A DNA stretch of 64,000 bases, taken from NCBI GenBank assembly GCA_964620965.1, contig CAZUHV010000001.1:85839-149838 (forward strand). Direction: 5' to 3'. The position numbers and the translations under genes are program-made. The first letter of the stretch is position 1; every line of letters starts with the position of its first letter. Below, piece by piece: positions 25,798-55,047 of this stretch. A model generated the notes under the pieces. It ran no database searches. It saw only the letters and a list, made by a program, of their open reading frames with translations, and was not told where the DNA came from. Origin of the DNA: an uncultured Pseudomonadales bacterium. Its GTDB lineage: Bacteria > Patescibacteriota > Microgenomatia > UBA1400 > PJMF01.

Positions 25798-25842
25798 CAC
25801 ATTATGCTACAAAAATTTTGAAACTAACGGCCGCGCTTAGGA

Positions 25843-31440: not shown

Positions 31441-31904
31441 ATATTTTTTTCTTTAAAACTTTTGATCTTGTTACCTACCACAAAAGATAAATAGAAAATG
31501 CTCCCAGTTAAGATAAGTAAAAGAGAATATTTAGACTTCATAAATAAAACTAAAAAACCTATTTTTGGGATACTAAAAAAAATCTTTCCAATAACTTGTT
31601 CTTTTTTAATTAGTGACAAATCAGAAAAAGTATTTGCATCTCCTTTAACTTCGTATAAGGTTTCAGAACTTTTGTGAATAGAAACTATTCTGTGAGTAAC
31701 TGTTATTCCTTCAATTTCATAACTTACTATGTCATTAGGAGAATACTGCTCCTGGCTTTTAGCCAGGAGCACATCCCCAAATACAAACTCTGGTTTCATT
31801 GAATTAGAGGTAACTATGAGTAATTTCACTTTTAATATCTGCATTGAAATAATAATTGTGAGATACGGTATTAAGAGAAAAAACCACACTACCTGTATTT
31901 TCAT
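31437..31904 (-). CDS. sipW: signal peptidase I, SipW/archaeal-eukaryal type (S26B)
   Basis: VTSNSMKPEFVFGDVLLAK catalytic Ser region. C-terminal TM. Confidence 0.65.
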   Translation of the reverse strand: MKIQVVWFFLLIPYLTIIISMQILKVKLLIVTSNSMKPEFVFGDVLLAKSQEQYSPNDIVSYEIEGITVTHRIVSIHKSSETLYEVKGDANTFSDLSLIKKEQVIGKIFFSIPKIGFLVLFMKSKYSLLLILTGSIFYLSFVVGNKIKSFKEKNI

Positions 31905-34151: not shown

Positions 34152-34225
34152 GGCCCCATCGTCTAGCGGTTAGGACACCAGGTTCTCATCCTGGTAACCA
34201 GAGTTCGATTCTCTGTGGGGTCACC
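34152..34225 (+). tRNA. tRNA-Glu (anticodon CUC)
   Basis: Acceptor GGCCCCA/TGGGGTC. D arm TCGTCTAGCGGTTAGGACA. Anticodon stem CCAGG/CCTGG with loop TTCTCAT. T arm AGAGTTCGATTCTCT. Discriminator A then CC encoded. Confidence 0.8.
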
Positions 34226-35743
34226 TAAAGCAACACCCTGTGTATTAAAGTTAAATAATGATTGATACATAGGGTTTATTTCAGGGTTCAATGTTCCATT
34301 AAAGTCATATGTGACACCTTTGGGAAAGATTGAACCAAATAAAGCTTTTATCTGAGGTACGGTCGATTTTTTGTACGTAGCTCCTAAATCACTCAAAGTT
34401 TCTTTTATAAAAGCTGTTAGCTTGTTGATATCATATTTTTCAAGCGTTGAGTCTGCTTTGGCAACATGAGCTTTCTGTAGTTTATTCTCTATTAATGCGT
34501 TTTGTTCCATGAATATTTCATCGGTATACACACCCATCATGTTTTTTTGCACCAACACTTTTCTCATATCTTTGAGTCTTTGAATTTCATCATCTGCTAC
34601 GTTTTTGGCTTTCTTTACATTGGCAAGCCTCCTTTCATATTCTTCAACTACATACTGTGTAAATAACTCAATACATTCTTTACTTGGTGAAATGGATCTC
34701 AACAATCGAACCACTTCTTCATCTAACTGTTCAGCTCTAATAGAAGCGGCCTGACATTTAGTAGAACATCGGTAGTATGGATACTTTTTACTTCTACCTT
34801 TACTCCAACCAGCAGTTATTCCTTTGCCACACTCAGAACACTTAACAATCCTTCTTAACGGAAATGTTTTATTATTTCTAACTCGTTTTGTATTTACTAC
34901 AGGTTTAAAAACTCTTCTACCATCTAAAGCATCCTGAACTTTATAGAACTGTTCTAATGAAATCATTGGCCTGTGTTGACCTTGGACTTCTTCTTTATAA
35001 GTATCTGACGTCAAAATTCCTGCATAAAATTTATTACGAAGCATTCGTTGAACGGTAGGCACCTTTAATTTTATTCTTTTGCCTTTATGAACAGTGTATA
35101 AGCCCAGCTCGTTCATGATTTTCGTTATTTCAATGAGGCTTTTGTTTCCAAGCGCCATCAAATCCCACGCCTGCACCATCTTGTCCCATGATTCTGGGTC
35201 TTCGATTGGAAATTTGTTAACATCCATCATGTACCCAAGTGGAGGTTTTCTTGTGATTAATCCAGACTTGAACCTTGCATACATGCCATTTCTTGTTCTC
35301 TCGCTGCGTACATCATTATCATGCTGAGCAAAACTGGCCATGATAGTTTCTAGCAGTGTATCTGTTGGAGACGTTCCTGTGGGTTCTGAGGCTGAAATTA
35401 GCTGTATATTATTGCTGATCAAGGTCTTTCTGATTGAAAGATAATCTGAAGTTTGTCGAGAAAGTCGATCTAGTCTGTAGATAATAACAGCACCAAGCGT
35501 TCTTTTATTTTTCTTGCAATAATGCAGTAACTCGACTAATTCTGGACGACCAGCTATAGTTTTGGCAGACTTACCTTCCTCACGAAATATTTTGATAACT
35601 TTCAAGCCTTTTCTAATAGCTTCTTTTCGACACAGTTCTTCTTGAGTATCTAATGAAAAATTATCAACTTGCTCTTCGGTTGAAACTCTGAGGTAAATAA
35701 TTGCATCAGTTTTAGTAGTATTTTGAGCTTTATTTCTAGTCAT
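34163..35743 (-). CDS. large serine recombinase (resolvase catalytic domain, recombinase domain and zinc ribbon)
   Basis: IIYLRVSTEEQ catalytic Ser motif. Recombinase domain. Zinc ribbon CSECG...YYRCSTKC. C-terminal coiled coil. The last about 21 codons are encoded antisense to the 3' two-thirds of tRNA-Glu. Confidence 0.8.
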   Translation of the reverse strand: MTRNKAQNTTKTDAIIYLRVSTEEQVDNFSLDTQEELCRKEAIRKGLKVIKIFREEGKSAKTIAGRPELVELLHYCKKNKRTLGAVIIYRLDRLSRQTSDYLSIRKTLISNNIQLISASEPTGTSPTDTLLETIMASFAQHDNDVRSERTRNGMYARFKSGLITRKPPLGYMMDVNKFPIEDPESWDKMVQAWDLMALGNKSLIEITKIMNELGLYTVHKGKRIKLKVPTVQRMLRNKFYAGILTSDTYKEEVQGQHRPMISLEQFYKVQDALDGRRVFKPVVNTKRVRNNKTFPLRRIVKCSECGKGITAGWSKGRSKKYPYYRCSTKCQAASIRAEQLDEEVVRLLRSISPSKECIELFTQYVVEEYERRLANVKKAKNVADDEIQRLKDMRKVLVQKNMMGVYTDEIFMEQNALIENKLQKAHVAKADSTLEKYDINKLTAFIKETLSDLGATYKKSTVPQIKALFGSIFPKGVTYDFNGTLNPEINPMYQSLFNFNTQGVALGDPTENRTLVTRMRTWCPNR

Positions 35744-35939
35744 AATTCAGCTGGTTTAGTAATTCATCTAACGTTTTTCCTTCAAACATTTCTTTTTCAA
35801 AGTCGTCTAACCAACTAGTTGCCAAAAATTTAATTTCAACAACTGAATCTTGCAAAATTTCTTGAGGAATTGGTGAGTTTTCACCAGTGTAGGTATTGGG
35901 GTTATTGTCTAATTCGTGGCTATTTTTCATCTCGATCAA
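35736..35939 (-). CDS. hypothetical small acidic protein (candidate recombination directionality factor)
   Basis: 67 aa, pI acidic. Its stop overlaps the recombinase start by 8 nt. The functional assignment is speculative. Confidence 0.3.
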   Translation of the reverse strand: MIEMKNSHELDNNPNTYTGENSPIPQEILQDSVVEIKFLATSWLDDFEKEMFEGKTLDELLNQLNYD

Positions 35940-35948
35940 CCCTTATTT

Positions 35949-35991
35949 AACTATCCATATACGGTTAGTATATATACTATTACGGATAGTT
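35949..35991. promoter_or_regulatory. nested palindrome (candidate operator or recombinase-binding site) upstream of the T4CP gene
   Basis: Outer inverted repeat AACTATCC/GGATAGTT encloses a perfect 14-bp palindrome TAGTATATATACTA. A TTGCCA-17-TATACT promoter follows at 36009..36037. Confidence 0.4.
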
Positions 35992-36071
35992 GTCAACACT
36001 AATTTATTGCCAAAAACCAGAGGTTGGGGTATACTCCAACACAACATTGTCTGCCCAAAGAAAAGAAGGGC

Positions 36072-38660
36072 ATGGCTACTGATTTAAACCAAATACTCTC
36101 ATACTTTCCTGCCACAGTAATTCCATCAATCAACTGGTCTGTTCTTTATTTTTCCCTCAGCATTTTTTTCATTTTTCTTGTTTCACTCTTCTTAGCTTTT
36201 CAGCTCATTCGGCTTGCCTTGTTATATAGACTTCACACTGCAAAACATGTCTATTTAGAAATTAAGCCACTCAAAAAGACAGAGCTTAATCCATATTCTA
36301 CCGAGCAACTCTTTAATCTCTTTCATAGCATTACCAATCAAAGGTCTTTTATTGAGAGAATATTTAGAGTTACAAAAAGTATTAGCCTGGAGATTGTCTC
36401 CACCAAGGCCGATGGTATTCGCTATGTGATTCGAGCACCTCAGTCTTTATCAGGACTTATCAAAAATAGCTTGCTGTCATATCTGCCAGGAATTCAGATC
36501 AACAAAACCGCTGAGTATCTACAGAAAAGTGAAAATAGTTTTACCACACAACTAAAACTTGCCAAACACTTTGCTTTCCCTCTAAAGGCTCATGAAAGTT
36601 TAGATAAAAATGACCCTATCGCGTACTTAACTGGGGCTATGACTAAACTCAAGGAAAACGAGTTACTTGCCTATCAAATTGTTATCAGCCCTGTTTCAAA
36701 ATCAAAACTTCCTGAAGTTAAACGACTCCAAAAACTCATCAAGAGTAAACAAGACTTAACTGCCGAAATTGCCCATGCACATTCAGGTGCTTGGTTGTAT
36801 CTGACAATTTCTTACGCACTACAAATCTTACTTTTACCACTTGGTTTATTAGTGTTCCTAGCTACCGATGGTAGAGATGGGCCATTATTACCACTGCCTA
36901 AAATTCTAAAAGGCAAGAAATCAAGTAATGCCTACCAGAGTGAAATTGAAAAGCTAGTTAAAAAGAAAATTGATCAGCCTTTATACAAGGCTTCAATCAG
37001 AGTGCTTTCTCAATCAACAAATGAATATTGGGCTAAGAAAAAATCAAAAGGTTTTGTTTCAACGCTCAAGTCAATGAGTGGTACTCAATATCAACATCTT
37101 ACTAAAAGTCTTAAACTTCCAATCAAGCAACTTAACACTTTCAAGAACTTATTGTTTAGAAATCGGCTATTACTCCCTTTTAACAACACAATACTGTCTG
37201 CATCCGAACTTGGAGATTTATATCACTTCCCATTCACCAAGACGACAAAAACTGAAGATATGCAAAAGCAGTTTAGCAAGGATTTACCTGCACCGCTGTC
37301 ACTCAAAAAAGGTAATAAGCTTGATGTAGTATTTGCCCAAAATACGTATGGTAATTCCAGAACATTGATCGGCTTAACCGAGGATGAACGCAGAAGACAC
37401 ATGTACATCTTGGGAGCTACAGGTACGGGCAAATCAACCATGCTACTGAGCATGATCAACTCCGATATTCAAAACGGCAAAGGATTGGCAGTTGTTGATC
37501 CTCATGGAGATTTGATTGAACAAATTTTACATCTAATACCAAAAGAGCGGATCAAAGATGTTGTGTACTTTAACCCTGATGATATTGAGTATCCGATGGG
37601 AATCAACTTACTTGAGTTATCACAAGGCTTAGGTGAAGAAGCTGCATTAAGAGAAAAAGAATACATCTCTGAAAGCATTATTTCTTTGTTCCATAAAATC
37701 TATACCGAAAAATACTCGGGCCCAAGGATGGAGTATATCCTCAGAAACACCATTCATACTGCCTTTACTGTTCCTGGAGCAACATTATTTACTGTCTATA
37801 AATTACTAATCAATACTAAGTTTAGAAAATCAGTGGTTAAACAACTAACCGATGAAAACCTCAAAGACTTTTGGAAGTATGAGTTTGCCAAAGCTGGAGA
37901 CTACCAGAAAGTAAAAATGATCTCACCAATTACTAACAAAATTGGTCGTTTCCTGTTTTCTCCAACAGCTAAAAGAATCTTGGAGCAAGAAAAATCTACC
38001 ATAAACTTTGAAGAAATAATGAATGAAGGCAAGATCTTGCTTTGTAACTTATCCAAAGGAAAGCTTGGAGAAGATAACTCAAAAGTGTTTGGCGTGGTGG
38101 TTATGGCAAAACTACAGCTTGCTTCTCTAAGGCGTGCTCGAATGGCTGAGAAAGATAGAAAAGACTTCTACTTATATGTTGATGAATTCCAAAACTTTGC
38201 CACTCCCGCTTTTGCACAAATATTGTCTGAGGCTAGAAAGTATAGACTAGGGGCAATACTAGCCCATCAAACAACTTCACAGTTGGAAGACAAGTCATTA
38301 GTTAATGTGACACTGGCTAACACTGGAACAGTAATTTGCTTTAGAACTGCTAACCCAGAAGATGAGACACTCATCTTGCCTCAATTCAGGCCATATGTTG
38401 AACAAGGTGATATTGCTGGATTACCGTCATACAGATTCTTTATGAGACTAGGTGCTTTAAACCCTGAAGAGCCTTTTTCTGGGATTACTATGCCTGTTGA
38501 AATTAGGGAAAACAAAGGAAGAGTGAATGAGGTGATTGAGAATTCTAGAAAGCACTTTGCCATGAAATACGAGCCGTCAGCAACAACACAAGTTTTTCGT
38601 AGATATAAAAAGGTAAGTAAACCCAAATCTAAAACACAGGCATTTTCGACCTTGCCTTAG
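36072..38660 (+). CDS. type IV coupling protein-like ATPase (TraD/TrwB/VirD4 or TraG-D_C family, membrane-anchored)
   Basis: N-terminal TM helices. Walker A YILGATGTGKST. VVDPHGDL. Walker B YLYVDEFQNF. The ORF track starts at 36024, which lies inside the predicted promoter, so the ATG at 36072 (MATDLNQ) is preferred. Confidence 0.55.
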   Translation: MATDLNQILSYFPATVIPSINWSVLYFSLSIFFIFLVSLFLAFQLIRLALLYRLHTAKHVYLEIKPLKKTELNPYSTEQLFNLFHSITNQRSFIERIFRVTKSISLEIVSTKADGIRYVIRAPQSLSGLIKNSLLSYLPGIQINKTAEYLQKSENSFTTQLKLAKHFAFPLKAHESLDKNDPIAYLTGAMTKLKENELLAYQIVISPVSKSKLPEVKRLQKLIKSKQDLTAEIAHAHSGAWLYLTISYALQILLLPLGLLVFLATDGRDGPLLPLPKILKGKKSSNAYQSEIEKLVKKKIDQPLYKASIRVLSQSTNEYWAKKKSKGFVSTLKSMSGTQYQHLTKSLKLPIKQLNTFKNLLFRNRLLLPFNNTILSASELGDLYHFPFTKTTKTEDMQKQFSKDLPAPLSLKKGNKLDVVFAQNTYGNSRTLIGLTEDERRRHMYILGATGTGKSTMLLSMINSDIQNGKGLAVVDPHGDLIEQILHLIPKERIKDVVYFNPDDIEYPMGINLLELSQGLGEEAALREKEYISESIISLFHKIYTEKYSGPRMEYILRNTIHTAFTVPGATLFTVYKLLINTKFRKSVVKQLTDENLKDFWKYEFAKAGDYQKVKMISPITNKIGRFLFSPTAKRILEQEKSTINFEEIMNEGKILLCNLSKGKLGEDNSKVFGVVVMAKLQLASLRRARMAEKDRKDFYLYVDEFQNFATPAFAQILSEARKYRLGAILAHQTTSQLEDKSLVNVTLANTGTVICFRTANPEDETLILPQFRPYVEQGDIAGLPSYRFFMRLGALNPEEPFSGITMPVEIRENKGRVNEVIENSRKHFAMKYEPSATTQVFRRYKKVSKPKSKTQAFSTLP

Positions 38661-39322
38661 TTGCTTTTAACAATTTTTCCATCTTTGATTATTGGAAAGA
38701 AATTGAATGTATCAACCTCTAGTGCCAAGTGAAAGTCATCCTCGGGAAAATTATCATTTTGAGGATTAAGAAAGCTATTCAATATCCATTCATGTTGTTC
38801 AAGCTTTGCTTTCACTTCCTCGAGAGAAGGATGTGTCTCACCTTTTAATTTACTTACCATGTACTCAGCAAAAAGTTGATCTTCTAAAGCATACATTGGG
38901 ACGAATGTAATATCTTCAGATTGACTGGCTTTTAAGAAATCCAAAATTGCTTGAGCAGAAACGAATGACCCAAATATTATTTGATTTGCATTTGTAGAAT
39001 TAACTAAGCCTTGTGTGCCAGTTGAACTTCTATGAATAACCTTTTTTCCATCCAAATTATTAAGGGTTTTTATAACTGATGGAGAATTACCGATATCAAA
39101 ACCATCAATCTTAATTCCCTTATTTTCACCAACAAGCAACACTTCTTCATCCTTCATCTTAAAGTCAAAAGCCTCTTCTGGGGTTGCAACAGGATGAATT
39201 GAAGTCACACCTTTATCAAGTAAATATGATGCAACAGTTGCTGCCCTCAGAACGTCAATTATTATCGCAATACCATTAGCACTTTGCGCCCCTTTAATTC
39301 CTTTGACAATTTTAATATTCAT
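38657..39322 (-). CDS. 2-phosphosulfolactate phosphatase (ComB) family protein
   Basis: IIDVLRAATVASY and GIKIDGFDIGNSP motifs typical of PF04029. Confidence 0.55.
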   Translation of the reverse strand: MNIKIVKGIKGAQSANGIAIIIDVLRAATVASYLLDKGVTSIHPVATPEEAFDFKMKDEEVLLVGENKGIKIDGFDIGNSPSVIKTLNNLDGKKVIHRSSTGTQGLVNSTNANQIIFGSFVSAQAILDFLKASQSEDITFVPMYALEDQLFAEYMVSKLKGETHPSLEEVKAKLEQHEWILNSFLNPQNDNFPEDDFHLALEVDTFNFFPIIKDGKIVKSN

Positions 39323-39348: not shown

Positions 39349-40083
39349 TTATGCTTTACTCATACTATTTATTGTTCGTGCAATACTTAGCCAATCACTT
39401 TTTTTTAATCCATACGCTACTGGGTGTGGGATTACAAAGAAATGAGTAGTACCTTTTCTGCAATGATATAGATTTTTATTTTTCCTAAACTTCTCAGAAA
39501 CAATATCACTCCATTTATCTAAATATGATAAAGAATAAAAAATTACTACCTTTGGATTATGTTTTTTTAGTAACTTTTTAAATAAATCAATTCTTATTGG
39601 CATTACATGCTCTAAATATGTTTTTCTTGTTTCTAAATAATCAATCTTAAATTGGTCATAAAACCAATCTTTTTTTCTGACTGACTTACAAGGAAGTGGC
39701 ATGAACTCTAAAACACAGTGATCACTATGTGATCTAGCAAAGTTATTTCGTTGATATTGTTTTATTACATCTAGACTAACTTCTTCACTTGAATACAACA
39801 TAAGTAATATGAGAATAAGTTTTGACCAGGTTCTCTGACTTGGAGCATCTGGTAAAAACCATTTAATGTGATCAGGGACATGCTTCATATCAGATTTGAT
39901 ATCTATGACAGATTTATCTTTGGTCTTAGTAAACCTTTTTTCTAAATCTGATAGGCTGCCATCAAAACCTTCCTCCATACCAACAAACCAAGTATCAGAG
40001 TCAAGATTCCCATACCCCCAGTAGTTTTTTATTCTATTTTCGATTAATTCTTTATTTAACATACCTAATGCTTGATTATACAT
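39349..40083 (-). CDS. hypothetical protein (possible UDG-superfamily-like fold; weak)
   Basis: 244 aa. N-terminal GMEEGFDG and C-terminal VIPHPVAYG are spaced like UDG motifs A and B. This is inference only. Confidence 0.3.
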   Translation of the reverse strand: MYNQALGMLNKELIENRIKNYWGYGNLDSDTWFVGMEEGFDGSLSDLEKRFTKTKDKSVIDIKSDMKHVPDHIKWFLPDAPSQRTWSKLILILLMLYSSEEVSLDVIKQYQRNNFARSHSDHCVLEFMPLPCKSVRKKDWFYDQFKIDYLETRKTYLEHVMPIRIDLFKKLLKKHNPKVVIFYSLSYLDKWSDIVSEKFRKNKNLYHCRKGTTHFFVIPHPVAYGLKKSDWLSIARTINSMSKA

Positions 40084-40262
40084 TGATTTAAACTTAAGAT
40101 TACTCTATTAAAAAACTGCCCCTACCGTCTAGGACAAAAATAAGATACTTTCCCAGATACGAATCAAAATATTCTTTACCTCTATTCCCTTATATAATAA
40201 GGGGAGGGAATGATACAATACCTCACAATACAGAAAATAGCCTGCCCATAGTAAATAACACT

Positions 40263-41030
40263 ATGGATACCATAACTCCTAAACAATTAGAAATCCTCAT
40301 ACTAATATATCGTTTCCGTTTCCTTAATCGTCACCAAATCCAAATACTCCTTAATCATAAAGACCCCAAACGAATAAACTCCTGGCTTAAAGATCTCAAT
40401 CAAAAAAATATCCTCGGTAGAATCTACTCAACTAAACTCAAAGAAAATACCAAACCAGCGATATACTACCTAGCTACCAAATCAAGAAAAATACTTCTTG
40501 AACAAGAAAATACTAACGAGAAAATTTTAAGAAGAGCCTACAGGGACAAAAATGCTTCTCAAAAATTAATAAATCACAGCATCTTTCTAGCCAATGTCTA
40601 TTTATTACTTAAAGAACAAGCCCTCAAAAACAAACAAGAACTTCATTTTTATACAAAAACTGATTTAGCAGAACACTACTACCTGCCATATAACCGACCA
40701 GATGTGTATATTTCCCTGAAAGGGAATGACTTAACAAAGCGTTATTTCCTAGAAATCATTGACAAAGGTACACCACGCTTTATGCTTCGAAAGAAAATCT
40801 CTCAATACATTGAGTACTTTGACGAAGGAACCTGGCAAAATAGGACGTTACATGAAAAACCATCACTTTTATTTATCTCTCCAAATCAAAATATCTACAA
40901 CTTCCTCACCAAACATATTGCTCAAGTTTTGGAGGAGGAGACTTCAGACTTACAATTTTTCCTAAGTCTGAAGTCAGAGATACAAGAAGCTGGCTTAACT
41001 GCCAACACTTGGCACCTCATCAGCGAGTAA
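40263..41030 (+). CDS. replication-relaxation family protein (PF13814-like, putative relaxase or mobilisation protein)
   Basis: N-terminal ITPKQLEILILIYRFRFLNRHQIQ winged-helix signature of the Replic_Relax family. Confidence 0.55.
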   Translation: MDTITPKQLEILILIYRFRFLNRHQIQILLNHKDPKRINSWLKDLNQKNILGRIYSTKLKENTKPAIYYLATKSRKILLEQENTNEKILRRAYRDKNASQKLINHSIFLANVYLLLKEQALKNKQELHFYTKTDLAEHYYLPYNRPDVYISLKGNDLTKRYFLEIIDKGTPRFMLRKKISQYIEYFDEGTWQNRTLHEKPSLLFISPNQNIYNFLTKHIAQVLEEETSDLQFFLSLKSEIQEAGLTANTWHLISE

Positions 41031-41780
41031 TACCGCCAGCACTTTTTCAACTGTTCCCATCGCCTTAGTTATGGCAATGAGTGGATCATCTGAATAGTGG
41101 CTAATATAGCTCCAAGCTTTCCCGCTAGAATCTCCCATGCCGTACAAGTCCATCAATACTGCAGATGTAAACTCGGCTACTGTTTCTTGTGTCTTGTTTT
41201 GTCCTTGCTTTAGCTCTCCATCTATTCGCGCGTGTATCGCATGGGCTAATTCATGAAAAAATACTCCTGCATCGTGTGTACCAAGTCTGATTTTGCTACC
41301 ATCAGTTTGACAATCACCAAGCTTATCAGGACTAATAGGTGCATACTCAACATCTATACCAAATTTTTTAGCCACATCTAGCAACGGAGGATATTCTACT
41401 GGCTCGTAGGTTGATACCATTTCATCACCCTCAGTGCATGAAGCTGCAAATACTGGAATAGGAGCAAACCCAACACAAATATTTTTTGTATCCTCTTCGT
41501 TTTCCTGATCAACCTTTGCGAGCTTGGGTCTGAGTATATACACTGCTTTACTACCTTTTTTGACCGTTCTGCCTTCTTTTTGCCACTGTTTATACCCTCG
41601 GCAATCAAGCTCATCTGACTGTAAAAAGGCTAGCACTTTATTTGATAAACTCCACTTATTAACTGGAGCATCACTAGCAACTTGAATGCGAGCTATTCTT
41701 GTCACAGTTGATAAGTCTCCAGTTTGAAATTTTTCTATTACTTTGTTGATGCTTGCCTGTGCTTTTGCTGATAGTTTCAT
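40995..41780 (-). CDS. ArdC-like antirestriction protein (ssDNA-binding ArdC-N plus zincin metalloprotease-like domain)
   Basis: KWSLSNKVL...RGYKQWQKEGRTVKKGSKAVYI matches the ArdC-N pattern. C-terminal HExxH (FHELAHAIH). Confidence 0.55.
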   Translation of the reverse strand: MKLSAKAQASINKVIEKFQTGDLSTVTRIARIQVASDAPVNKWSLSNKVLAFLQSDELDCRGYKQWQKEGRTVKKGSKAVYILRPKLAKVDQENEEDTKNICVGFAPIPVFAASCTEGDEMVSTYEPVEYPPLLDVAKKFGIDVEYAPISPDKLGDCQTDGSKIRLGTHDAGVFFHELAHAIHARIDGELKQGQNKTQETVAEFTSAVLMDLYGMGDSSGKAWSYISHYSDDPLIAITKAMGTVEKVLAVLLADEVPSVGS

Positions 41781-41952
41781 TTTTTCCCCCTTTAAAATTT
41801 TTTAATTGGAAGCAGGTTAGCCTGCTTCCATTACATGGAGCTTTAAAAGCGGGGTGAGTTTTGCAAGGGTCCCGACTTTCAGTCGAGACTTGCTATAGCC
41901 CTTGCAAAATGAGGGGTAAGACCCCTAATAACTACAGTCGTATAATTGAGAT

Positions 41953-42495
41953 ATGAAACAAAACACTAAACTTCCAAAAAACTATCCAACAAGTATCACT
42001 GAAGCATATGACTTAATTGTCAAAGCATTGCTTTCTGAAGATAAAGAACTAATAGCTAAAACCTGGAAATTCATTAATGAGGCAGAAGGTGATTGGGTTT
42101 GGGTAAGAGCAAAATTAATTACCGATTGTTATGAAGCTGCAGATGCAAAAGGAAGGGAAGAGTTTTGCTTGCTTGCATTAAGTGAGCATGTTAAAAATGG
42201 TCGAGCTTTGCCTCTAGCTGAGTTATTTACTGATCCCGATACAAACATTGATTATCTCGAATATCTAATGGGAGATATGACAATTTATCGACTGCCAATT
42301 GCAACTCCTGAGATAGGTAAATATGAATATCAAAAGGCATTAGAAAAAAAGTTTCTTGGAGATTTTATCGAAACACATTCTGTAGATGAAGTTACATACA
42401 CTCCACTAGATACTCAAGAGAAAATTGATGCATACAATAGCGGTGAGTATTATGAAAAGTTTGTGTATGGTAAAAGAAGAAAAAAGAAAAAATGA
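41953..42495 (+). CDS. hypothetical protein
   Basis: 180 aa with a Lys-rich C-terminus. TATAAT lies only 6 nt upstream of the ATG, suggesting a possible leaderless mRNA. Confidence 0.35.
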   Translation: MKQNTKLPKNYPTSITEAYDLIVKALLSEDKELIAKTWKFINEAEGDWVWVRAKLITDCYEAADAKGREEFCLLALSEHVKNGRALPLAELFTDPDTNIDYLEYLMGDMTIYRLPIATPEIGKYEYQKALEKKFLGDFIETHSVDEVTYTPLDTQEKIDAYNSGEYYEKFVYGKRRKKKK

Positions 42496-42535
42496 CGAAT
42501 TGCTCTGAGAAACTCTCAAAGCAATTAGGTATTAA
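42496..42535. repeat. 40-bp palindromic repeat, copy 1 (direct repeat of 48161..48200, 39/40 identical)
   Basis: CGAATTGCTCTGAGAAACTCTCAAAGCAATTAGGTATTAA. Contains a 13-bp-stem hairpin AATTGCTCTGAGA-aac-TCTCAAAGCAATT. Confidence 0.8.
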
Positions 42536-48200: not shown

Positions 48201-48495
48201 AAATCAAATAATCATACAGAAACATAACTGCCCACAAACAAAAGATTGAGATAATCAAATAAGCAAGCTTTCTATTCCAACCCCGCTTCAACTGTGCCAA
48301 CGAGCCCAACAGAATTACTATCTCAAATGGATAAGTAATAAAATCACAGTAACTTCCACACCAATTCTTTTCTAAAATAACTACATCTGTTGCAAAGCTA
48401 TTTAAACCAAAACTTTGCTGCACATCTCTAACAATATGAAACACTGAGAAAAGTACTAACAAACCAAAAACATATTTGTATGCATTCTTTCTCAT
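48190..48495 (-). CDS. hypothetical small membrane protein
   Basis: Three TM helices. ATGA overlap with the upstream nuclease gene. Confidence 0.35.
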   Translation of the reverse strand: MRKNAYKYVFGLLVLFSVFHIVRDVQQSFGLNSFATDVVILEKNWCGSYCDFITYPFEIVILLGSLAQLKRGWNRKLAYLIISIFCLWAVMFLYDYLIFNT

Positions 48496-49997
48496 ATCAC
48501 TTTTTGTAACTCTTCCAATATCCTCACCATCGCAAAAGTATCAAGTGTGCAATAACGGCTCAAATCATCCATAATCATTGGTCGTTTTTCTCTGTTTTTA
48601 CCTTCCAAAACGGTTTGTGTCCACATTCTGCGAGCTAGTAATCCATCAGAAACATTAAGCTCTTTGTAGCTTAACTCAGGAGCTAATACTGGCATAACTT
48701 TCTTGACCGAGGCACTGCCAAAAAAATCTTTATCAAAAAACCACATCTTAGCAAATGGAGTCATCAAATCGTCTATGCGATCATTGAGATCTGCCAGGAA
48801 ATCTGCATACTCTGGAAACAGTTCTGCCATTCGATCATTACAACCTTTTTCATAACTCATGTTCCAAGTAAGCACAGTACCAGTTGTACCAATATCTTGC
48901 TTGAGCTGAGCTAATAATCCTGGCATTGGATCTGTTGCTTGGTTATGTAAATACTCTAAGTGTTTTAACTCTGCACCTGGGCTTTCAATTATGTGTAACG
49001 AATATTGGAATGGATAATCCTTGTATGGGCTATATCCATCAAATTGAGGAACTACTGTTGAGAGTGTTTCGTAATCAAAAAAGTAGAGTGGATACTGGAA
49101 CGTATCTAAAAAGGCTTTAATCTTGTCTTTATCAATAATTCGCTGACCAGTTTTAGTGGTTCTAATTTGAACTCGTTGTTTATCTCTTAAAGCTTGGTCT
49201 TCTGTCATCTCGTGAATTGAAGAAATGCCAAGATCTTCTAGATCCCCAAGTTGTTCTGGGCTTGGATAAGCAAGGTTGTAAATGGAGTAGGTGTCATATT
49301 CACCTTTGATGTTTTTATAAATCTCCATCCATTCTTCAAGCCACTGTGATGATTTGTTTGGAATACAAAGTTGATTAATAAATCTTGGTGAAACATCTGG
49401 CATAGTTCTATTTGCCAATACTTCAAAGGCCATATCTACTTGTAAAAGTGTGGTGCTCATCAAGGCGCGAACTTTATCTGTGATATCTGTTTTATCAACC
49501 AAACCAGCAGGATCAATTTCCCCCTCACGCACATATTCTTTGTTTGCATGCATCACAGCTACATTGCGAATTTTTAGTCCTGCTTTTTCTAGTACCAACA
49601 GTTGAAATGCTAAATCATATTCGTGTTCTGGTTTAGCTTTAGTGCTAGCTTTAATTTCAATTAAGTCAAAAGTTTCATCCGGATGTTTGAATAATACATC
49701 AGTAATACAAGTTAAATTATCAACTTCAAACCTGCCTTGAAAAATAACTTCTGCGCCTTGTTGTAAAGCTTGCTGAGTTCGAGCAGGTAGACTCAAATAC
49801 TCATCATAATTATTGAATCCAAGTCGAACCCCATTGGGAAATAGGCTTTCGGCATATTGCTCAAAGTCATGACCTGCATCAAACATGGCTTGCGTATTGT
49901 CATCAACTGGAGGTAATTTATTTTTGTCATACTTCTTTAGCCACAACCATGCAGGATGGCGAAGAAAGAGCATGTAGTCGGATTTACTTAATATCAT
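48492..49997 (-). CDS. dual-nuclease protein: N-terminal PD-(D/E)XK (Cas4/RecB-like) plus C-terminal DnaQ/RNase H-like exonuclease-like domain (DUF2779-like)
   Basis: D...FDLIEIKAS fits the PD-(D/E)XK core. C-terminal LYFFDYETL resembles DEDD exonuclease motif I. The start ATG overlaps the RloC-like stop (ATGA). Confidence 0.5.
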   Translation of the reverse strand: MILSKSDYMLFLRHPAWLWLKKYDKNKLPPVDDNTQAMFDAGHDFEQYAESLFPNGVRLGFNNYDEYLSLPARTQQALQQGAEVIFQGRFEVDNLTCITDVLFKHPDETFDLIEIKASTKAKPEHEYDLAFQLLVLEKAGLKIRNVAVMHANKEYVREGEIDPAGLVDKTDITDKVRALMSTTLLQVDMAFEVLANRTMPDVSPRFINQLCIPNKSSQWLEEWMEIYKNIKGEYDTYSIYNLAYPSPEQLGDLEDLGISSIHEMTEDQALRDKQRVQIRTTKTGQRIIDKDKIKAFLDTFQYPLYFFDYETLSTVVPQFDGYSPYKDYPFQYSLHIIESPGAELKHLEYLHNQATDPMPGLLAQLKQDIGTTGTVLTWNMSYEKGCNDRMAELFPEYADFLADLNDRIDDLMTPFAKMWFFDKDFFGSASVKKVMPVLAPELSYKELNVSDGLLARRMWTQTVLEGKNREKRPMIMDDLSRYCTLDTFAMVRILEELQKVI

Positions 49998-52213
49998 ATT
50001 TTCTCAAGCAAACTTAAAAAGTCGTCTAATTTCTGTATTTTTTCAGGTTCATTCAACTTCATGATTTCGTGTTGATCATGCATATGTTCATGCCAGTTAT
50101 TTTCTAAAATATCATCTTTAACCAAACACTTGTCACCAATTTTTTCTAGATATGCAGAAATACTCCCCTCAGAAAGAGTCTTTTCATCCAAAGAGAAATA
50201 ATACTTGTGTCTCAAAATTCTTTCCAAGCACTTACGTACCTTACCAATTGCTTCATCAACATTTCTATTGTTATCAACTGAATCTTTAATAAACTTTACG
50301 CTTTTGAAAAATTCTTCCTCAATAACGTTTTCCACATCACACTTTACTATGCTAGAGCCTGCAGAACCTGAGTTTTTAATTTGAAGAAATTTGGTTTCAT
50401 TTTTTGGTATTTTGCTTTGCAATCTAGCCAAAAAGCTATCATCATGAGTAAGTATAATTACCTGCTCTGGCTCTTCATTTGATTGATTTTTAATTTTGAC
50501 TATAGTCCTAACCAACGCGTCCTTGCGATTTGAATCTAAACTTGAAAAAGGATCGTCAAAGACAACAATTTTTTTGTTTAAAAATTTATCTGTTTGTAAT
50601 TTTGATATAAAAATTGCAATTGCCAACAATCTTCTATCGCTATCACTTAACGTATTCCCAAAGTAATATTTATCCTTAGGCTCAATGTCGTCCTGAGATC
50701 TTTTATTTGAAATAGGAACAACTTGACTGCCAAATGCAAATTCGTAGTCAACAAAATGTGATTTTGATCTAGTTAAGTTCGAGCGACTATCTAATTTCTG
50801 TATTGAGAACTCTGCCCTAAGTTCATTTTTCAATACTTTTTCAATTTCTTTTTGATTATCTACAATTGTTTTTTTTGTCTCCTGATTAATTTCGTCTCTT
50901 AGGTTTTTCACTTCCTTCTTCTTGTCTTTGATGAGTTTTTCTGCATCAAAATAGTCTTTTGTTAAACTCACTCCTTCTTTGCTATGCCTGTATTTAGATA
51001 GCTTTAACTTTTTTAACTGATTTAGTAAATTTCGATAATCTTGTTCAGAGAATTCCTGTTTAAGTATTGAATCAAATACAGGGTGAAGTTTTTTAATTTC
51101 AATCAAGAATAATTGAAATGGTTTATCTTTTGAGATTAAATCAATCGAATAGTTTAAATTCTTTAATTTTTTATCAATTTCTTTGTCTAGATCCGCTTTA
51201 TTTTCCAGTAACTCCTTCTTATTTAACAATTCATCACAGTTAATTCCTAGAGGGTTAAGTTTTGCTATTTCTGCTTCAGGATCAAATCGCAAAAAGTTTT
51301 CTCCCGCTGATTCAATTTCTTTTTGAACTTGTCTATACGTTGCGCCAAAAACGCTCTTAAAATCTTTTATTAAATCTTTTACAGGCTCTAAGTCTTGCCC
51401 ACAAAAAACACAGTTTTTAGACTCATCTTTTAAGATAGCAACACCTTCTGAAATAAAATTCTTAGATGCACTTGCGTCTTTCCAATGATTATGAATATGA
51501 TTTTCAATGCTTACTTCAGCTGAAGTATCTAACGATTTCTCCATTGCTAACTTAAAGTTCTCAAATTTTGACGCCAATGGGGAATGCTTAATCTGTTCCT
51601 TAATTGATGAAATATTATTTAGGCGTTTAATTTCTGTTTCTTTTTTTGAAATTTTGTCATCAACACTCTCTACTTTTTCTGCTTTAAGAAATTCCTCAAA
51701 AGTTCCCAGATCAACTTTTATATATTTATTTTTTACTTTGTCTCTATCACTTTCTAAATCTGCTTGTTCATTACGAAGCCTCTTGAGAGCAAGTACTTTA
51801 TCACCTATGTTTTCTCCTACAAATATTCCATGAAGTGAAGCTTTATGTTCAAAATCAATTTGATCTCCTAGATAAACGTAATTTTGAACAAAGTTACTAT
51901 CAAATACAACAATATTTGGATTACTCCAGTTACCGTTTGATAGAGTGGAATGTTTATTATTTTCATCCAAAATATCAATCTCAGAACTTTCTGAATATCC
52001 GAAAGTCTTTTTACCCTTCAACAATCCTTGATCAGAATTTTTTAAGGATCTAAATATCGTTGTCAAAGTGCTTTTGCCATAAGTGTTATGTCCAAAAATA
52101 ACAGTTCTTTTGAAAAAACGTAATTCATCATCTCCAGAACATGTAAATTGCTTGAACTTTCCAATTCCTTTGATTTTTATAATTTTACTAATCATTTTTT
52201 CCCTTACTACCAC
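49994..52213 (-). CDS. RloC/PrrC-like ABC-type ATPase with coiled-coil zinc-hook insert, putative restriction-linked anticodon nuclease
   Basis: Walker A FGHNTYGKSTL. Long Lys/Glu coiled coil containing CVFC (CxxC hook). D-loop/Walker B VVFDDPFSSLD. C-terminal R-x3-H (RILRH) and a His cluster. Co-operonic with hsdR. Alternative start at 52195 (MISKIIKIKG). Confidence 0.55.
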   Translation of the reverse strand: MVVREKMISKIIKIKGIGKFKQFTCSGDDELRFFKRTVIFGHNTYGKSTLTTIFRSLKNSDQGLLKGKKTFGYSESSEIDILDENNKHSTLSNGNWSNPNIVVFDSNFVQNYVYLGDQIDFEHKASLHGIFVGENIGDKVLALKRLRNEQADLESDRDKVKNKYIKVDLGTFEEFLKAEKVESVDDKISKKETEIKRLNNISSIKEQIKHSPLASKFENFKLAMEKSLDTSAEVSIENHIHNHWKDASASKNFISEGVAILKDESKNCVFCGQDLEPVKDLIKDFKSVFGATYRQVQKEIESAGENFLRFDPEAEIAKLNPLGINCDELLNKKELLENKADLDKEIDKKLKNLNYSIDLISKDKPFQLFLIEIKKLHPVFDSILKQEFSEQDYRNLLNQLKKLKLSKYRHSKEGVSLTKDYFDAEKLIKDKKKEVKNLRDEINQETKKTIVDNQKEIEKVLKNELRAEFSIQKLDSRSNLTRSKSHFVDYEFAFGSQVVPISNKRSQDDIEPKDKYYFGNTLSDSDRRLLAIAIFISKLQTDKFLNKKIVVFDDPFSSLDSNRKDALVRTIVKIKNQSNEEPEQVIILTHDDSFLARLQSKIPKNETKFLQIKNSGSAGSSIVKCDVENVIEEEFFKSVKFIKDSVDNNRNVDEAIGKVRKCLERILRHKYYFSLDEKTLSEGSISAYLEKIGDKCLVKDDILENNWHEHMHDQHEIMKLNEPEKIQKLDDFLSLLEKI

Positions 52214-55047
52214 TCAAACATATCTACTATATTCTCAATAGCACTCCTCACACGATCGATGATGCTTTGACGTTCTAAAATTCTTGGGGCTTCTGGGAGA
52301 AGATCAACAATATCTTGTCCATGTGGAAGTTTTTGTGTATATAAATACTCGCCAATAATATTTTCAAACTTTTCTAGTGGAATATTTTCAGCTTGTGCTA
52401 CTTCTCGCAGTGCAGAGGAGCGTTCACTTGCCCAGAATTTCTCAAAGGCTTCTTCAACATTTTCATCTTCTCTGATCTTAGGTAGATTCTCCTCAATAAA
52501 TTTACGGATAAGTTCTTTCTTTTTGCGAAGCTTCACATCGCGATCAAATAATCTGAGAATATCTTCTGTTTTCTTCTCACGAACTACATCTGAACTAATG
52601 TCTTTAAGTCCAGCAATAAGCTGAATAATGTAGTCAAAATCAACTACATCACGAACAGTGAGCTCTAATTCAAAGTCGATTTGATCCAAAATGGATTCTT
52701 TTTCAGGCTCATGAGTTTTTCTTTCCTCATGAATATCAAGATACTTACTTTGGTAATCATAAAATTCTTGTTCTGTAATACCCAAGTCATCAAATGAGAA
52801 TTCTGCAAAGGTTTCGAGTGAAGACTTAATTCGAAGCAAATCTCTAAAGCTTTTAACAAATGCAGCCTTATCTTCTTCACCTCGCAAATCATCAACTGAA
52901 GAAACAGTAGGTACTTTTACTCGTAAGTGAGCAAGCTTTTCTTCAAACTCCTTTTTCTGAACTTCATATGGCTTCTTGAAAACAACTTCCTTAGCGTTTT
53001 CATCACCAAACAAAGCAAGAGCTTTGTCAGTATTCAGTTTAAGGTTTCTAAAAGAAACAATGTTTCCATGCGGTTTGTCAGAGTTCAGCAAACGATTTGT
53101 TCTGGAATAAGCCTGGATTAGTCCGTGATATCTCAAATTCTTATCAACGTACAAAGTGTTGAGTCTTGGGCTATCAAATCCAGTTAAGAACATGTTTACC
53201 ACAATAGTTAGATCAACTTCTTTGTTTTTAATTCGCTTCTGTAGATCTCGATAATAGTCATAGAATCTGTCAGTAGAGTAATTTGTGCCGAAATCCTTGT
53301 TGTAGTTTTTGATACAGCTTTCTAAGAAATCTCTTGAATGCTGATTTATCACATCACCCTTATCAGCAAACACGTCAACATCAAGCATGTCTGCACTATC
53401 ATCCTCATTTGCTTGATAGGTAAAAATTGTAGCGATTTTAAAATCATCAGGTTTCTTAGCAGAAAGCAGAGTGTAGTATTTCTTTAATATCTCAATACTT
53501 GGAGTGCAAAAAAGAGCATTAAACTTGCCATTCTTTGTTTTACGCTTCCAATCATGAAGGATATATTCAGCAATTTTTTCTATTCGCTCATCACTTTCGA
53601 GAACTTCTTTGGTGTCAATACCTTCAACCATAGTTTCAGCAAAGATGTCAGCATCTAGAGTATCAGGGTCTTTTTTCTTGTACTTACCAACATACTCAAC
53701 TGCAAAACCAAGCACATTATTGTCATCAATAGCGTGGGTAATAATATAGCGGTGCAAGCATTCACCAAATACATCTTTTGTAGTTACACCACCAACATTG
53801 TTATCAGCAAATATCGGTGTTCCAGTAAAACCAAAGAGTTGAGCTTTATTAAAATGACTCTTTATTCTATTGTGGGTTAATCCAAACTGACTGCGGTGAC
53901 ACTCATCAAAAATAATGACTACTTTTTCATCTTGCAGATCTTCAAATTGTTTAAGATACGATTCTCTGGAAACTGCAATATCTAGCTTTTGGATTGTAGT
54001 AACTATGAGTTTTCTCTTTGGCTCTTTAAGCTGTTTTACTAAGTTACGAGTATTATCCGTTCCATCAACAGAACCATCAGAAAAGTGATTAAACTCTTTT
54101 GTTGTTTGAATATCGAGGTCTTTACGATCAACTACAAAGATAACTTTTTTAATTTCGGGTAACTGTGAAAGAATCTGACTGGCTTTGTATGAAGTCAAGG
54201 TTTTTCCAGAACCAGTGGTATGCCAAATATAGCCATTCTGGTTAGTTTCTTTAACCTTTTGCTCAATAGCTCTGACTGCATAGTACTGATAAGGGCGGAG
54301 TACCATTGGAATTTTAAGAGATTCATGCAACACAATATATTCAGCAATCATGGATGAGATTTTGCATTTTTCTAAAAACGCCTCAGCAAATTGATTAAGT
54401 TGTGTAATTTTTTTGTTTTCTTCATCTGTCCAATAGAAGGTTTGTTCAAATGATTGCTTTGGATTATTAGAAAAGTATTTTGTGTTTACACCATTAGAGA
54501 TAATAAAAATCTGGACGTATTCGAATAAAGTTCCTGAAAAAGAATGTTTGTGATAGCGTTGAATCTGATTGAAAGCCTCCTTCATTTCAACGCCACGGCG
54601 TTTGAGCTCAATTTGCACTAAGGGAAGACCATTTATGAGAAGGGTAACGTCATAGCGATTTTCATACCTTCCAGCTTGAGTGACTTGATTTGTGACTTGG
54701 TACTCATTCTTGCACCACTTATCCATGTTGAAAAATCGAACCCAGAACTTTGTCTCATCATCACGAGTCAGCACAAATCTATCTCGCAAAGTTTTTGCTT
54801 TTACAAAGCGGTCACCTTTTTCAAGATGATTGAGTATGCGAGAAAATTCGGTATCAGAGAAAATTGTGTTGTTAAACTTTTCTAGTTGTGACTTAAGATT
54901 TTGATTTAATGACTCTACATCTGGCAAAGAAACCCTATCAAAACCCAAGTTTCCAAGTTGTGCTATTAATTCGTTTTCTAGTTGTAGTTCTGATTGCGCC
55001 ATAATTTTATCTATACAAACATTTGTTGTAACAGTCCCTTTTTCCAC
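52207..55047 (-). CDS. hsdR: type I restriction enzyme R subunit
   Basis: SF2 helicase motif I GYIWHTTGSGKTLTS. DEAH box FDECHRSQ. N-terminal nuclease region. The likely true start is 55002 (MAQSELQ). Confidence 0.85.
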   Translation of the reverse strand: MEKGTVTTNVCIDKIMAQSELQLENELIAQLGNLGFDRVSLPDVESLNQNLKSQLEKFNNTIFSDTEFSRILNHLEKGDRFVKAKTLRDRFVLTRDDETKFWVRFFNMDKWCKNEYQVTNQVTQAGRYENRYDVTLLINGLPLVQIELKRRGVEMKEAFNQIQRYHKHSFSGTLFEYVQIFIISNGVNTKYFSNNPKQSFEQTFYWTDEENKKITQLNQFAEAFLEKCKISSMIAEYIVLHESLKIPMVLRPYQYYAVRAIEQKVKETNQNGYIWHTTGSGKTLTSYKASQILSQLPEIKKVIFVVDRKDLDIQTTKEFNHFSDGSVDGTDNTRNLVKQLKEPKRKLIVTTIQKLDIAVSRESYLKQFEDLQDEKVVIIFDECHRSQFGLTHNRIKSHFNKAQLFGFTGTPIFADNNVGGVTTKDVFGECLHRYIITHAIDDNNVLGFAVEYVGKYKKKDPDTLDADIFAETMVEGIDTKEVLESDERIEKIAEYILHDWKRKTKNGKFNALFCTPSIEILKKYYTLLSAKKPDDFKIATIFTYQANEDDSADMLDVDVFADKGDVINQHSRDFLESCIKNYNKDFGTNYSTDRFYDYYRDLQKRIKNKEVDLTIVVNMFLTGFDSPRLNTLYVDKNLRYHGLIQAYSRTNRLLNSDKPHGNIVSFRNLKLNTDKALALFGDENAKEVVFKKPYEVQKKEFEEKLAHLRVKVPTVSSVDDLRGEEDKAAFVKSFRDLLRIKSSLETFAEFSFDDLGITEQEFYDYQSKYLDIHEERKTHEPEKESILDQIDFELELTVRDVVDFDYIIQLIAGLKDISSDVVREKKTEDILRLFDRDVKLRKKKELIRKFIEENLPKIREDENVEEAFEKFWASERSSALREVAQAENIPLEKFENIIGEYLYTQKLPHGQDIVDLLPEAPRILERQSIIDRVRSAIENIVDMFEW

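Follow-up and report, generated by a model that had tools for sequence, protein, structure and literature searches.

The present study analyzes a short intergenic region (positions 41781–41952) of a 64,000-nucleotide (nt) window of contig CAZUHV010000001.1, the window being the whole stretch of DNA analyzed, whose host genome is a low-G+C (~35%) member of the Patescibacteria. The region separates an ArdC-family gene from a divergent open reading frame (ORF) of 180 amino acids (aa), and its three inverted repeats are the window copy of a strongly conserved, covarying cassette of ~140 nt that contains three hairpins (HP1 to HP3) and an unpaired core. The cassette marks the outer limit of a conserved module of serine recombinase, type IV coupling protein (T4CP), MOBC-type relaxase, and ArdC, and the evidence holds that it is a functional cis element which folds single-stranded and belongs to this transfer module. 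A sequence-only reading of the window had suggested an origin of transfer (oriT), a single-strand origin (sso), or a small RNA at this site; a folding cis element in a transfer module is what was found, but oriT is not the best reading and a small RNA lacks both promoter and terminator. The reading that we put first, at about an even chance, is that the cassette is a self-contained expression-control region for establishment genes (ArdC, and elsewhere DUF2958) of an integrative mobilizable module of Patescibacteria.

Within the window, the three repeats were recovered essentially as the sequence-only reading had described them. HP1 appears on the plus strand as AGGGGT-aag-ACCCCT at 41912–41926, and the 11-bp inverted repeat with an enclosed sub-repeat at 41859–41909 is HP2, in which perfect 11-bp basal arms are separated by 29 nt and GTCCCGAC (41869–41876) pairs internally with GTCGAGAC (41882–41889), the single mismatch of this inner pair being C.A on the plus strand and equivalent to G.U on the minus strand. 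HP3 had been given as a perfect 9-bp hairpin at 41808–41829; the perfect hairpin is present, but its true extent is 10 bp, at 41807–41830. The setting between divergent ArdC and hypothetical genes was likewise confirmed by the ORFs at 40995–41780 (minus strand) and 41953–42495 (plus strand), and the relaxase gene, placed earlier at 0.8 kb from the repeats, lies ~0.75 kb away. Folding of both strands, proposed at that time as a check, showed the 172-nt region to be more stable than 200 of 200 dinucleotide shuffles as plus-strand RNA (z = −4.5), minus-strand RNA (z = −6.35), and plus-strand DNA (z = −5.8). A scan for perfect inverted repeats of at least 9 bp, with arms of at least 50% G+C and a spacer of 3–40 nt, found them at four places in the window, two of which are in this region, while shuffled windows had 0–2 with a mean of ~0.5. 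The other two places are 25768–25801 and 31747–31771.

Comparison of 79 genome and 80 metagenome loci, plus further contigs obtained by exact protein look-up, showed the same block upstream of ArdC in locus after locus when read on the ArdC-coding strand. The sequence-only reading had named as its refutation a lack of conserved repeats in homologous elements and of a nick-site-like motif; the repeats covary in ~40 elements, and a near-invariant 12-nt unpaired core accompanies them. HP1, AGGGGYCTTRCCCCT, is kept in all copies, and its innermost pair covaries, being U-A in 23 copies and C-G in 16; it is followed by CAUUUUG in ArdC-type copies and by CGGUUCG in DUF2958-type copies. In HP2 the 11-bp basal stem hardly varies, the internal loop is conserved, and the inner hairpin is variable and of two length classes, the arms being 29 to ~50 nt apart across copies; double changes occur in five basal pairs and in all four inner pairs, and the outer TT/AA becomes GG/CC in DUF2958 copies. 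The core between HP2 and HP3, CTCACCCYGCTT when read on the minus strand and AAGCRGGGTGAG on the plus strand (alignments A2/A3/A5), is predicted to stay unpaired or to pair only weakly, and when a specific partner was sought for it the test failed. In HP3 the sequence varies while pairing is kept, with GGAAGCAGG, GGAAGTAGG, TTGGAGGC, CAGGTAGC, and GAGAGCAG each accompanied by its exact complement and compensatory double changes in 10 of 10 modelled pairs. Overall, ~60 nt of the cassette are near-invariant among modules whose relaxases are 33–45% identical and whose ArdC proteins are 57–96% identical.

A covariance model built from 11 copies identified 41 non-identical copies in 40 sources at 60–163 bits, all on the ArdC strand; the copy at 41791–41927 on the minus strand, scoring 145 bits (covariance model R1, E ~1e-32), was the sole one in the 64-kb window. 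In the 41-copy alignment, which was fitted to the covariance model, 97.0% of 1183 cells were paired, and double changes were found in 23 of 31 modelled pairs as against 11.5 ± 1.6 in shuffles, none of 500 shuffles reaching the observed value. When partner columns were slid, pairing fell to 40–56% with at most five covarying pairs. An independent MAFFT/RNAalifold run recovered HP1 and HP3 with compensatory changes. The covariance model found no cassette in the ArdC loci of Chloroflexota, Planctomycetota, or other non-Patescibacteria groups. Rfam 15 had no match to the cassette (E ≤ 10 for the window region, E ≤ 1 for four other loci), and blastn of 40200–42500 against the 72,556 plasmids of PLSDB gave none. 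Among IMG/VR viral contigs a degenerate pattern yielded 12 chance matches, of which the covariance model confirmed 0, and the ArdC relatives there were distant and had no cassette. No description of the family was found in Rfam or in the literature searched.

Position was as regular as structure. All 41 copies lie on the coding strand of the downstream ORF, and in 39 of them HP3 is 22–51 nt from the start codon (26 nt in the window). Most loci have ArdC as this ORF and the others DUF2958; in L009, L010, L019–L021, and L031 the cassette is situated more internally, just ahead of a DUF2958 gene confirmed by Pfam, and with that gene forms a discrete homology unit of ~0.5–0.6 kb with varied genes inserted just upstream. 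The DUF2958-ArdC gene pair is widespread in other phyla, and the two genes are therefore taken as one functional set. Every Patescibacteria-type module examined has at least one cassette and usually exactly one. Locus L025, with one relaxase, has two, one before DUF2958 and one before ArdC, and their HP3 sequences differ. Many copies have a short extra segment between the A/T-rich spacer and the ribosome-binding site which matches an arm of their own HP3; pairing with the own HP3 was −12.2 kcal/mol versus −10.0 kcal/mol with that of other copies, modest support for cis-specificity, and in L025 each downstream segment matches its own HP3.

The 5′ edge of HP1 is also a sharp boundary. In every informative pair of related loci, homology starts between −3 and +3 nt of this edge, and even close relatives have unrelated sequences on the upstream side of HP1. 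L001, the closest genome locus, labelled uncultured Patescibacteria group bacterium and having an ArdC identity of 96%, matches the window at 94% over 1.5 kb from −2 of the edge (41929 down to 40110), and three independent Logan contigs start exactly at the first base of HP1. No conserved target motif was found just upstream of the 5′ edge, no common motif at the 3′ end of the DUF2958 unit, and no tRNA-Glu fragment or repeat of the cassette edge at the tRNA-Glu/recombinase end of the module.

The unrelated flanks upstream of HP1 leave the cassette no outside promoter to depend on, and since the gap between HP3 and the start codon is in addition too small for a promoter plus ribosome-binding site, promoter and leader must overlap the cassette. 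This overlap, the unchanging orientation on the coding strand, the occurrence before two different genes, and the cis-matched segment together make an expression-control cassette the best reading. The hairpins would then fold in single-stranded nucleic acid and, once folded, would set the amount and timing of ArdC or DUF2958 expression after entry into a new cell, and this could happen in either of two forms. The hairpins may belong to an mRNA 5′ leader that stabilizes or gates the transcript, as reported for the repeats before ardC576 of plasmid p576; this precedent favors such a form, and so do the short distance to the ribosome-binding site and the cis-matched segment. Or the transferred DNA strand may fold into a promoter or primer signal that entry activates, comparable in role to Frpo or to a single-strand initiation signal (ssi) but with unrelated sequence and architecture, a form favored by strict Watson-Crick pairing, the lack of a conserved upstream promoter, and the near-invariant primary sequence. 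A more specific version of the latter, in which a signal in entering single-stranded DNA (ssDNA), promoter and/or primer, would turn on ArdC or DUF2958 before synthesis of the complementary strand, with a three-hairpin architecture that arose independently of Frpo and with the 5′ edge also serving as a precise junction for exchange of cargo or of entire cassettes, is tentative, and we would sooner expect it to be wrong than right.

Several observations weigh against expression control. No sigma-70-type promoter was seen at a fixed position inside or upstream of the cassette (41 copies, both strands), by rules that may differ in Patescibacteria. For a promoter formed in ssDNA, no stem re-creates a −35/−10 pair; a TTGCAA or TTGACA hexamer stands alone in the HP2 stem, and a −10-like hexamer follows at 16–18 nt in only 3–4 of 41 copies. 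Single-sequence folds predicted a long-range helix that would hide the ribosome-binding site by pairing the CCCC/T-run after HP2 with the A-run/GGGG at that site, but tails paired with the segment of their own copy no better than did the tails of other copies (own −11.4 versus other −10.3 kcal/mol, ranks scattered); the helix was set aside, and with it a model in which the distal arm would have supplied a TATAAT box 17 nt from TTGCAA. G.U pairs, at 6 of 1183 (0.5%), are unusually few for an RNA structure, and the wobbles present point both ways, with T.G on the coding strand in the inner HP2 of five copies and in one HP3 (L201), and coding-strand A.C three times in HP1. One DUF2958 gene (L085) has no cassette, its upstream region holding a remnant-like TTTTCACCCCATACCCCTTTTTTTGC, and the single copy in most modules and the homology break at the 5′ edge would equally fit a transfer or recombination site. 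A promoter prediction tool found no sigma-70 promoter in the window region, and a scan of 41500–42200 found no intrinsic terminator.

The scarcity of G.U pairs can be judged against a second hairpin of the same transcription unit. This inverted repeat (IR-A, 40110–40140) has 15 mismatches among 171 pairs (~9%) that are C.A on the relaxase strand and hence G.U on the ArdC strand, and a T-run follows on the ArdC strand; because of the G.U pairs on that strand and the ensuing U-run, IR-A is read as the terminator of the ArdC-direction transcript. The same mismatch pattern and U-run ruled out IR-A as a better-placed oriT. Among the 140 double-changed cells of the cassette alignment, by comparison, no accompanying G.U intermediate was seen except in L201, while one basal HP2 position tolerates any mismatch. 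That the terminator of the ArdC unit drifts through G.U and the cassette hairpins do not points to DNA-level pairing, pairing on both strands, or unusually strong selection for stability. The near-absence of G.U thus hints at DNA-level folding, and from the near-strict Watson-Crick pairing we lean slightly toward a DNA-level contribution of HP1 and HP2 and an RNA-level role of HP3. An early wobble count had pointed to the antisense strand as the one that folds, but the count became balanced once more copies were added and artefacts removed. The near-invariance of primary sequence, for its part, suggests recognition by conserved host machinery.

An alternative explanation could be that the cassette is the oriT of the MOBC module, with hairpins recognized on the transferred strand by relaxase or accessory proteins and nic located in the core or at the 5′ edge of HP1. 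It does lie within the T4CP-relaxase module, 0.75 kb from the MOBC relaxase gene, it co-occurs with both genes in 25–28 loci, and its regular presence in every module, usually once, would be expected of an oriT, as would strict Watson-Crick pairing of DNA hairpins. The near-invariant unpaired core flanked by a covarying inverted repeat resembles a nic arrangement, and oriT2 of pAD1, from a MOBC system, is said to be a ~140-bp inverted repeat plus short repeats. A homology break within 3 nt of the 5′ edge, at which three independent contigs start, would also be accommodated. The MOBC relaxase TraX is reported to recombine oriT copies (PMC5714925). What argues otherwise is that ~60 nt hardly vary in spite of such divergent relaxases, that L025 has two copies with different HP3 beside a single relaxase, and that the cassette, in two gene contexts, goes together with an ORF start and leaves too little space for a separate promoter. 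It also lacks direct repeats like those of the TraX binding site (five repeats, 70–120 bp from nic; PMC12857230): no direct-repeat family beyond chance was found in 41600–42150, and no 6-mer except ATTTTT occurred at least three times in 41700–42000. ArdC would moreover point away from such an oriT, opposite to the orientation reported for leading-region anti-defence genes (PMC11541004). The region 41781–41952 contains none of the nic cores of other MOB families that were compared with it; a comparison with the nic site of CloDF13 proved uninformative, the string used occurring once in CloDF13 and having only GGGTG in common with the cassette core. Altogether the cassette is probably not a classical transfer origin, and we regard oriT as unlikely. 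It is less likely again that the folded transferred strand serves as an ssi or sso, recruiting primase or RNA polymerase to prime the complementary strand without a direct role in expression. Three consecutive hairpins over ~140 nt with strict Watson-Crick pairing and a conserved primary sequence, suggestive of conserved host machinery, in a conjugative-module setting would be consistent with this; G4-type ssi signals have three hairpins, and Frpo reportedly doubles as a primer signal (Masai and Arai 1997, as cited in PMC11541004). Priming would not account, however, for the constant coding-strand orientation, the 22–51 nt distance to the start codon, or the downstream segment that covaries with HP3, the wobble pairs name no folding strand, and the CS-6 motif by which ssoA is defined (TAGCGT/A) is not on either strand of 41781–41952.

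The synteny break itself could reflect a terminal recombination or junction site, either part of a serine-recombinase attachment site or a cassette-type site, in which the hairpins are recombinase substrates. All informative pairs break at −3 to +3 nt, including those for the ~0.5–0.6 kb unit of cassette and DUF2958; loci that are otherwise related have different genes inserted just before the cassette, contigs break at its edge, L025 has two tandem units, and the recombinase lies at the opposite end of the module. Yet HP1 is nearly invariant though the recombinases are just 24% identical, where attachment sites normally co-vary with the recombinase, the edge sequence is not repeated at the tRNA-Glu/recombinase end, and the coupling to a ribosome-binding site is left unexplained. 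Serine-recombinase sites need no hairpins, and the R″/R′ core sites that define integron attC (RYYYAAC/GTTRRRY) are absent from both strands of 41781–41952. We hold such a site to be improbable. We give still less credence to double-stranded operator palindromes for a dimeric repressor, which without intrastrand folding would provide control of zygotic induction like that by Reg576 or ArdK. Strict arm symmetry without G.U pairs, a third, partial copy of the HP3 arm near the ribosome-binding site in many copies, and the precedent of Reg576 operators at PardC576 (PMC6294495) would all be in keeping with operators. An HP2 arm spacing of 29 to ~50 nt and a separately covarying inner helix fit a hairpin and not fixed half-site spacing, however, the two L025 copies differ in HP3, and each HP3 is matched solely by the segment downstream of it, the module has no conserved regulator gene, and the Reg576 heptamers are absent from the cassette. 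Finally, an independent small RNA or cis-antisense RNA of the FinP/CopA type could start, for example, from the TATAAT-like box just 3′ of HP3 and pair with the leader of ArdC. If sense and antisense transcripts must both fold, strict Watson-Crick pairing is expected; an antisense-strand TATAAT or TAAAAT box lies 4–9 nt from HP3 in ~12 of 41 copies, and the sgm-sRNA of SGI1 is a precedent for an essential small RNA in a mobilization module (PMC9299015). This is again very improbable, as most copies, including the DUF2958 ones, have no antisense −10 box, neither strand has a conserved −35 box or a terminator within the cassette, and no Rfam family matches.

The genes and signals of the module surrounding the cassette are given in Table 1.

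Table 1. Features of the transfer module and of the three-hairpin cassette, in window coordinates.
Feature	Position	Strand	Evidence or description
tRNA-Glu	34152–34225	+	tRNA scan; adjoins serine recombinase end of module
Large serine recombinase	34163–35743	−	Pfam Resolvase, Recombinase, Zn_ribbon_recom
64-aa ORF	35736–35930	−	
T4CP, VirD4/TraD-like	36024–38660	+	Pfam TrwB_AAD_bind, DUF87, TraG-D_C; weak NCBIfam TraD/VirD4 matches
Cargo gene, 2-phosphosulfolactate phosphatase	38657–39322	−	
Cargo gene, 244-aa unknown	39349–40083	−	
IR-A, intrinsic-terminator-like hairpin + U-run	40110–40140	−	Covarying hairpin in 18 loci
MOBC-type relaxase (Replic_Relax, PD-(D/E)XK)	40263–41030	+	Pfam PF13814, E = 1.8e-13
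ArdC-family gene	40995–41780	−	Pfam ArdcN, E = 2e-5, 25 bits
Intergenic region with three inverted repeats	41781–41952		
A/T-rich spacer + ribosome-binding site	41781–41802	−	AAAAAATTTTAAAGGGGGAAAAA, then ATG at 41780–41778; read from sequence
Whole three-hairpin cassette	41791–41929	−	5′→3′ order: HP1, HP2, unpaired core, HP3, A/T-rich spacer
HP3	41803–41833	−	Perfect 10-bp stem 41807–41816/41821–41830, 4-nt loop; lower-stem extension TAAT/ATTA
Unpaired core between HP2 and HP3	41845–41858	−	CTCACCCCGCTTTT on minus, AAAAGCGGGGTGAG on plus strand
HP2	41859–41909	−	11-bp basal stem TTTTGCAAGGG/CCCTTGCAAAA (41859–41869/41899–41909), conserved internal loop, inner hairpin 41869–41889
HP1	41912–41926	−	AGGGGTCTTACCCCT on minus strand; 6-bp stem, 3-nt loop; 5′ edge of cassette
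180-aa ORF, divergent from ArdC	41953–42495	+	

The PF13814 (Replic_Relax) family, to which the relaxase of the window belongs, has been equated with the MobC relaxase family (PMC5357655), and MOBC relaxases are PD-(D/E)XK nucleases (PMC3424549). According to a 2025 survey, which did not describe an oriT, relaxases of Patescibacteria are most commonly of the MOBC class, often beside t4cp (PMC12102498). The relaxase and ArdC genes are convergent with a 36-nt overlap (40995–41030). Sequence support for ArdC is weak (25 bits in Pfam; E ~0.6 in a profile search of the PDB), but its AlphaFold model, with a mean predicted local distance difference test (pLDDT) of 78.5, has as best PDB fold match the ArdC of R388 (6I89, E = 5e-8, TM 0.58, full length), and judged by this modelled fold the gene after the cassette is firmly assigned as a true ArdC. 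Homologs numbered 351 at 56–92% identity, and those named are from Patescibacteria. The trio of T4CP, relaxase, and ArdC was syntenic in 25–28 loci, with relaxase beside ArdC in 28 and T4CP beside relaxase in 25, and a serine recombinase follows T4CP also in a second, distant module (same position in L177/L178). No type IV secretion genes were seen in the 64-kb window, and the unit therefore looks like an integrative mobilizable element.

The recombinase ORF overlaps tRNA-Glu by ~60 nt, a probable integration end of the element, and the 64-aa ORF preceding the recombinase is an arrangement repeated in L177. Between these genes and the divergent T4CP gene, 35931–36075 contains a palindrome, AACTATCC...GGATAGTT, then TTGTCAAC, whose counterpart in L177 is ACTATCA...TGATAGT plus TTGTGTCAAG; it is a further candidate operator or oriT of the module. 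Between T4CP and relaxase, the 244-aa gene is swapped for other DNA in L001, and L177 has a GNAT and phosphatase pair there. Many modules (L191–L200, L208–L214, L177) have an ORF of 50–56 aa directly after ArdC; in the window, with its overlap of the ArdC and relaxase genes, no such ORF is evident. A defence-type cluster on the minus strand (48492–57816), a few kb past the element and so beside a carrier of an anti-restriction gene, comprises a DUF2779/Cas4-like gene, an AAA_13 ATPase, and hsdR, hsdS, and hsdM, which make up a complete type I restriction-modification system. Many loci of the Patescibacteria-type module occur in metagenome-assembled genomes (MAGs) titled Pseudomonadales, Gammaproteobacteria, Methylococcaceae, Brocadiaceae, or Limisphaerales, which suggests that these contigs are mis-binned or mislabelled; one MAG, CAZYNM01, has four module copies.

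Other signals for transcription and translation were seen in and around the module. IR-A is flanked by A-runs, and homology between the window and L001 breaks exactly at its outer edge (40110) as well. A transcript of ArdC would run antisense through the entire relaxase gene before reaching the terminator at 40110–40140, and transcriptional interference or antisense control of the relaxase by this transcript is possible. The probable promoter/operator of the relaxase is a palindrome at 40174–40219 that is built around TATAAT (CTTTACCTCTATTCCCTTATATAATAAGGGGAGGGAAT) and covaries from locus to locus. The 180-aa ORF has a perfect TATAAT box (41941–41955 region) ending 6 nt before its ATG and no ribosome-binding site, and may be translated from a leaderless mRNA; 33 nt separate the box from the nearest TTGCAA, which lies upstream in HP2, or 18 nt if HP1 were extruded. 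The six loci with the cassette before DUF2958 (L009, L010, L019, L020, L021, L031) have before ArdC a different conserved structured leader ('type 2'), ~190 nt upstream, with a long-range 10-bp pairing of AACTCACTGT...ACAGTGAGTT, internal repeats, and a hairpin in which the Shine-Dalgarno AGGAGG and CTCCTG are paired, with a G.U pair on the coding strand. Among the non-Patescibacteria loci L040–L054 and L111–L137, many, from Planctomycetota and other groups, have DUF2958 immediately upstream of ArdC on the same strand.

Conjugation-type type IV secretion systems are almost universal in Patescibacteria, also termed the Candidate Phyla Radiation (CPR), and relaxases are rare there. The module of serine recombinase, T4CP, MOBC relaxase, and ArdC with its cis element is widespread, present in several copies in some genomes, and exchanged between CPR lineages, and the cassette, at ~170 bp, offers a testable handle on whether and how CPR bacteria conjugate, now that genetic systems exist for Saccharibacteria. 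Should the cassette prove to be an ssDNA entry signal, it would be the first defined cis-acting signal for conjugation or establishment from the CPR and direct evidence of single-strand DNA transfer between these bacteria. For catalogues of RNA and DNA motifs it adds a new, well-supported structured family absent from Rfam, and the occurrence of G.U-poor hairpins beside a G.U-rich terminator in one transcription unit may help to separate DNA-level from RNA-level hairpins computationally.

A close parallel comes from plasmid p576 of Bacillus pumilus, in which three inverted repeats are found within the 75 bp before ardC576 and their deletion halves expression, and in which establishment genes are transcribed opposite to conjugation genes; in pLS20 and pKM101, establishment genes are preceded by conserved repeated regions (PMC6294495). 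In PardC576 as in the cassette, three inverted repeats stand immediately upstream of the ardC start codon, and as in pLS20 and pKM101 a conserved upstream region recurs before more than one establishment gene. The two differ in that there is no sequence similarity, no Reg576 heptamer operator, and no recognizable sigma-A promoter upstream of the repeats in the cassette, which is also longer (~140 nt), far more conserved across lineages, covarying, and placed at a module edge. Frpo of F-like and IncI plasmids is a hairpin located directly before leading-region genes, and it acts as a promoter solely in the single strand that enters the cell (PMC11541004). With Frpo and the ssi signals of F and ColIb-P9 the cassette has in common that non-coding repeats with structure and a fixed orientation directly precede early establishment or anti-defence genes of a conjugatively transferred element, that pairing is DNA-like and strictly Watson-Crick, and that copies occur before different genes. 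Frpo, in contrast, consists of a single long, imperfect hairpin in which −35 and −10 boxes are formed anew, where the cassette has three separate hairpins with a TTGCAA hexamer in one stem and no −10 partner. Nor has the cassette similarity to any plasmid of PLSDB, which presumably includes Frpo-bearing F-like and IncI plasmids.

The origins of MOBC systems such as pAD1 oriT2 resemble the cassette in their relaxase family (PF13814/MOBC) and in being a non-coding structured region of ~140 nt with large inverted repeats inside a T4CP-relaxase module, but the cassette lacks the ~5 direct repeats that serve as the relaxase binding site (PMC12857230). It is also separated from the relaxase gene by ArdC, tied to ORF starts, present as two different copies in one locus, and kept in sequence across very divergent relaxases. 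G4-type ssi and ssoA signals, which act solely in one ssDNA strand of mobile replicons, have about three hairpins in 100–150 nt, as the cassette does, and differ from it in that the cassette lacks CS-6 and in that a constant position before a start codon is not a feature of ssi or sso. In kind, then, the cassette is already known, as one of the structured or repeated control regions that precede establishment genes of transferable elements, and what is new in this family is its sequence, its architecture of three hairpins and a core, its host range in Patescibacteria, its precise coincidence with the module edge, and its almost complete freedom from G.U pairs.

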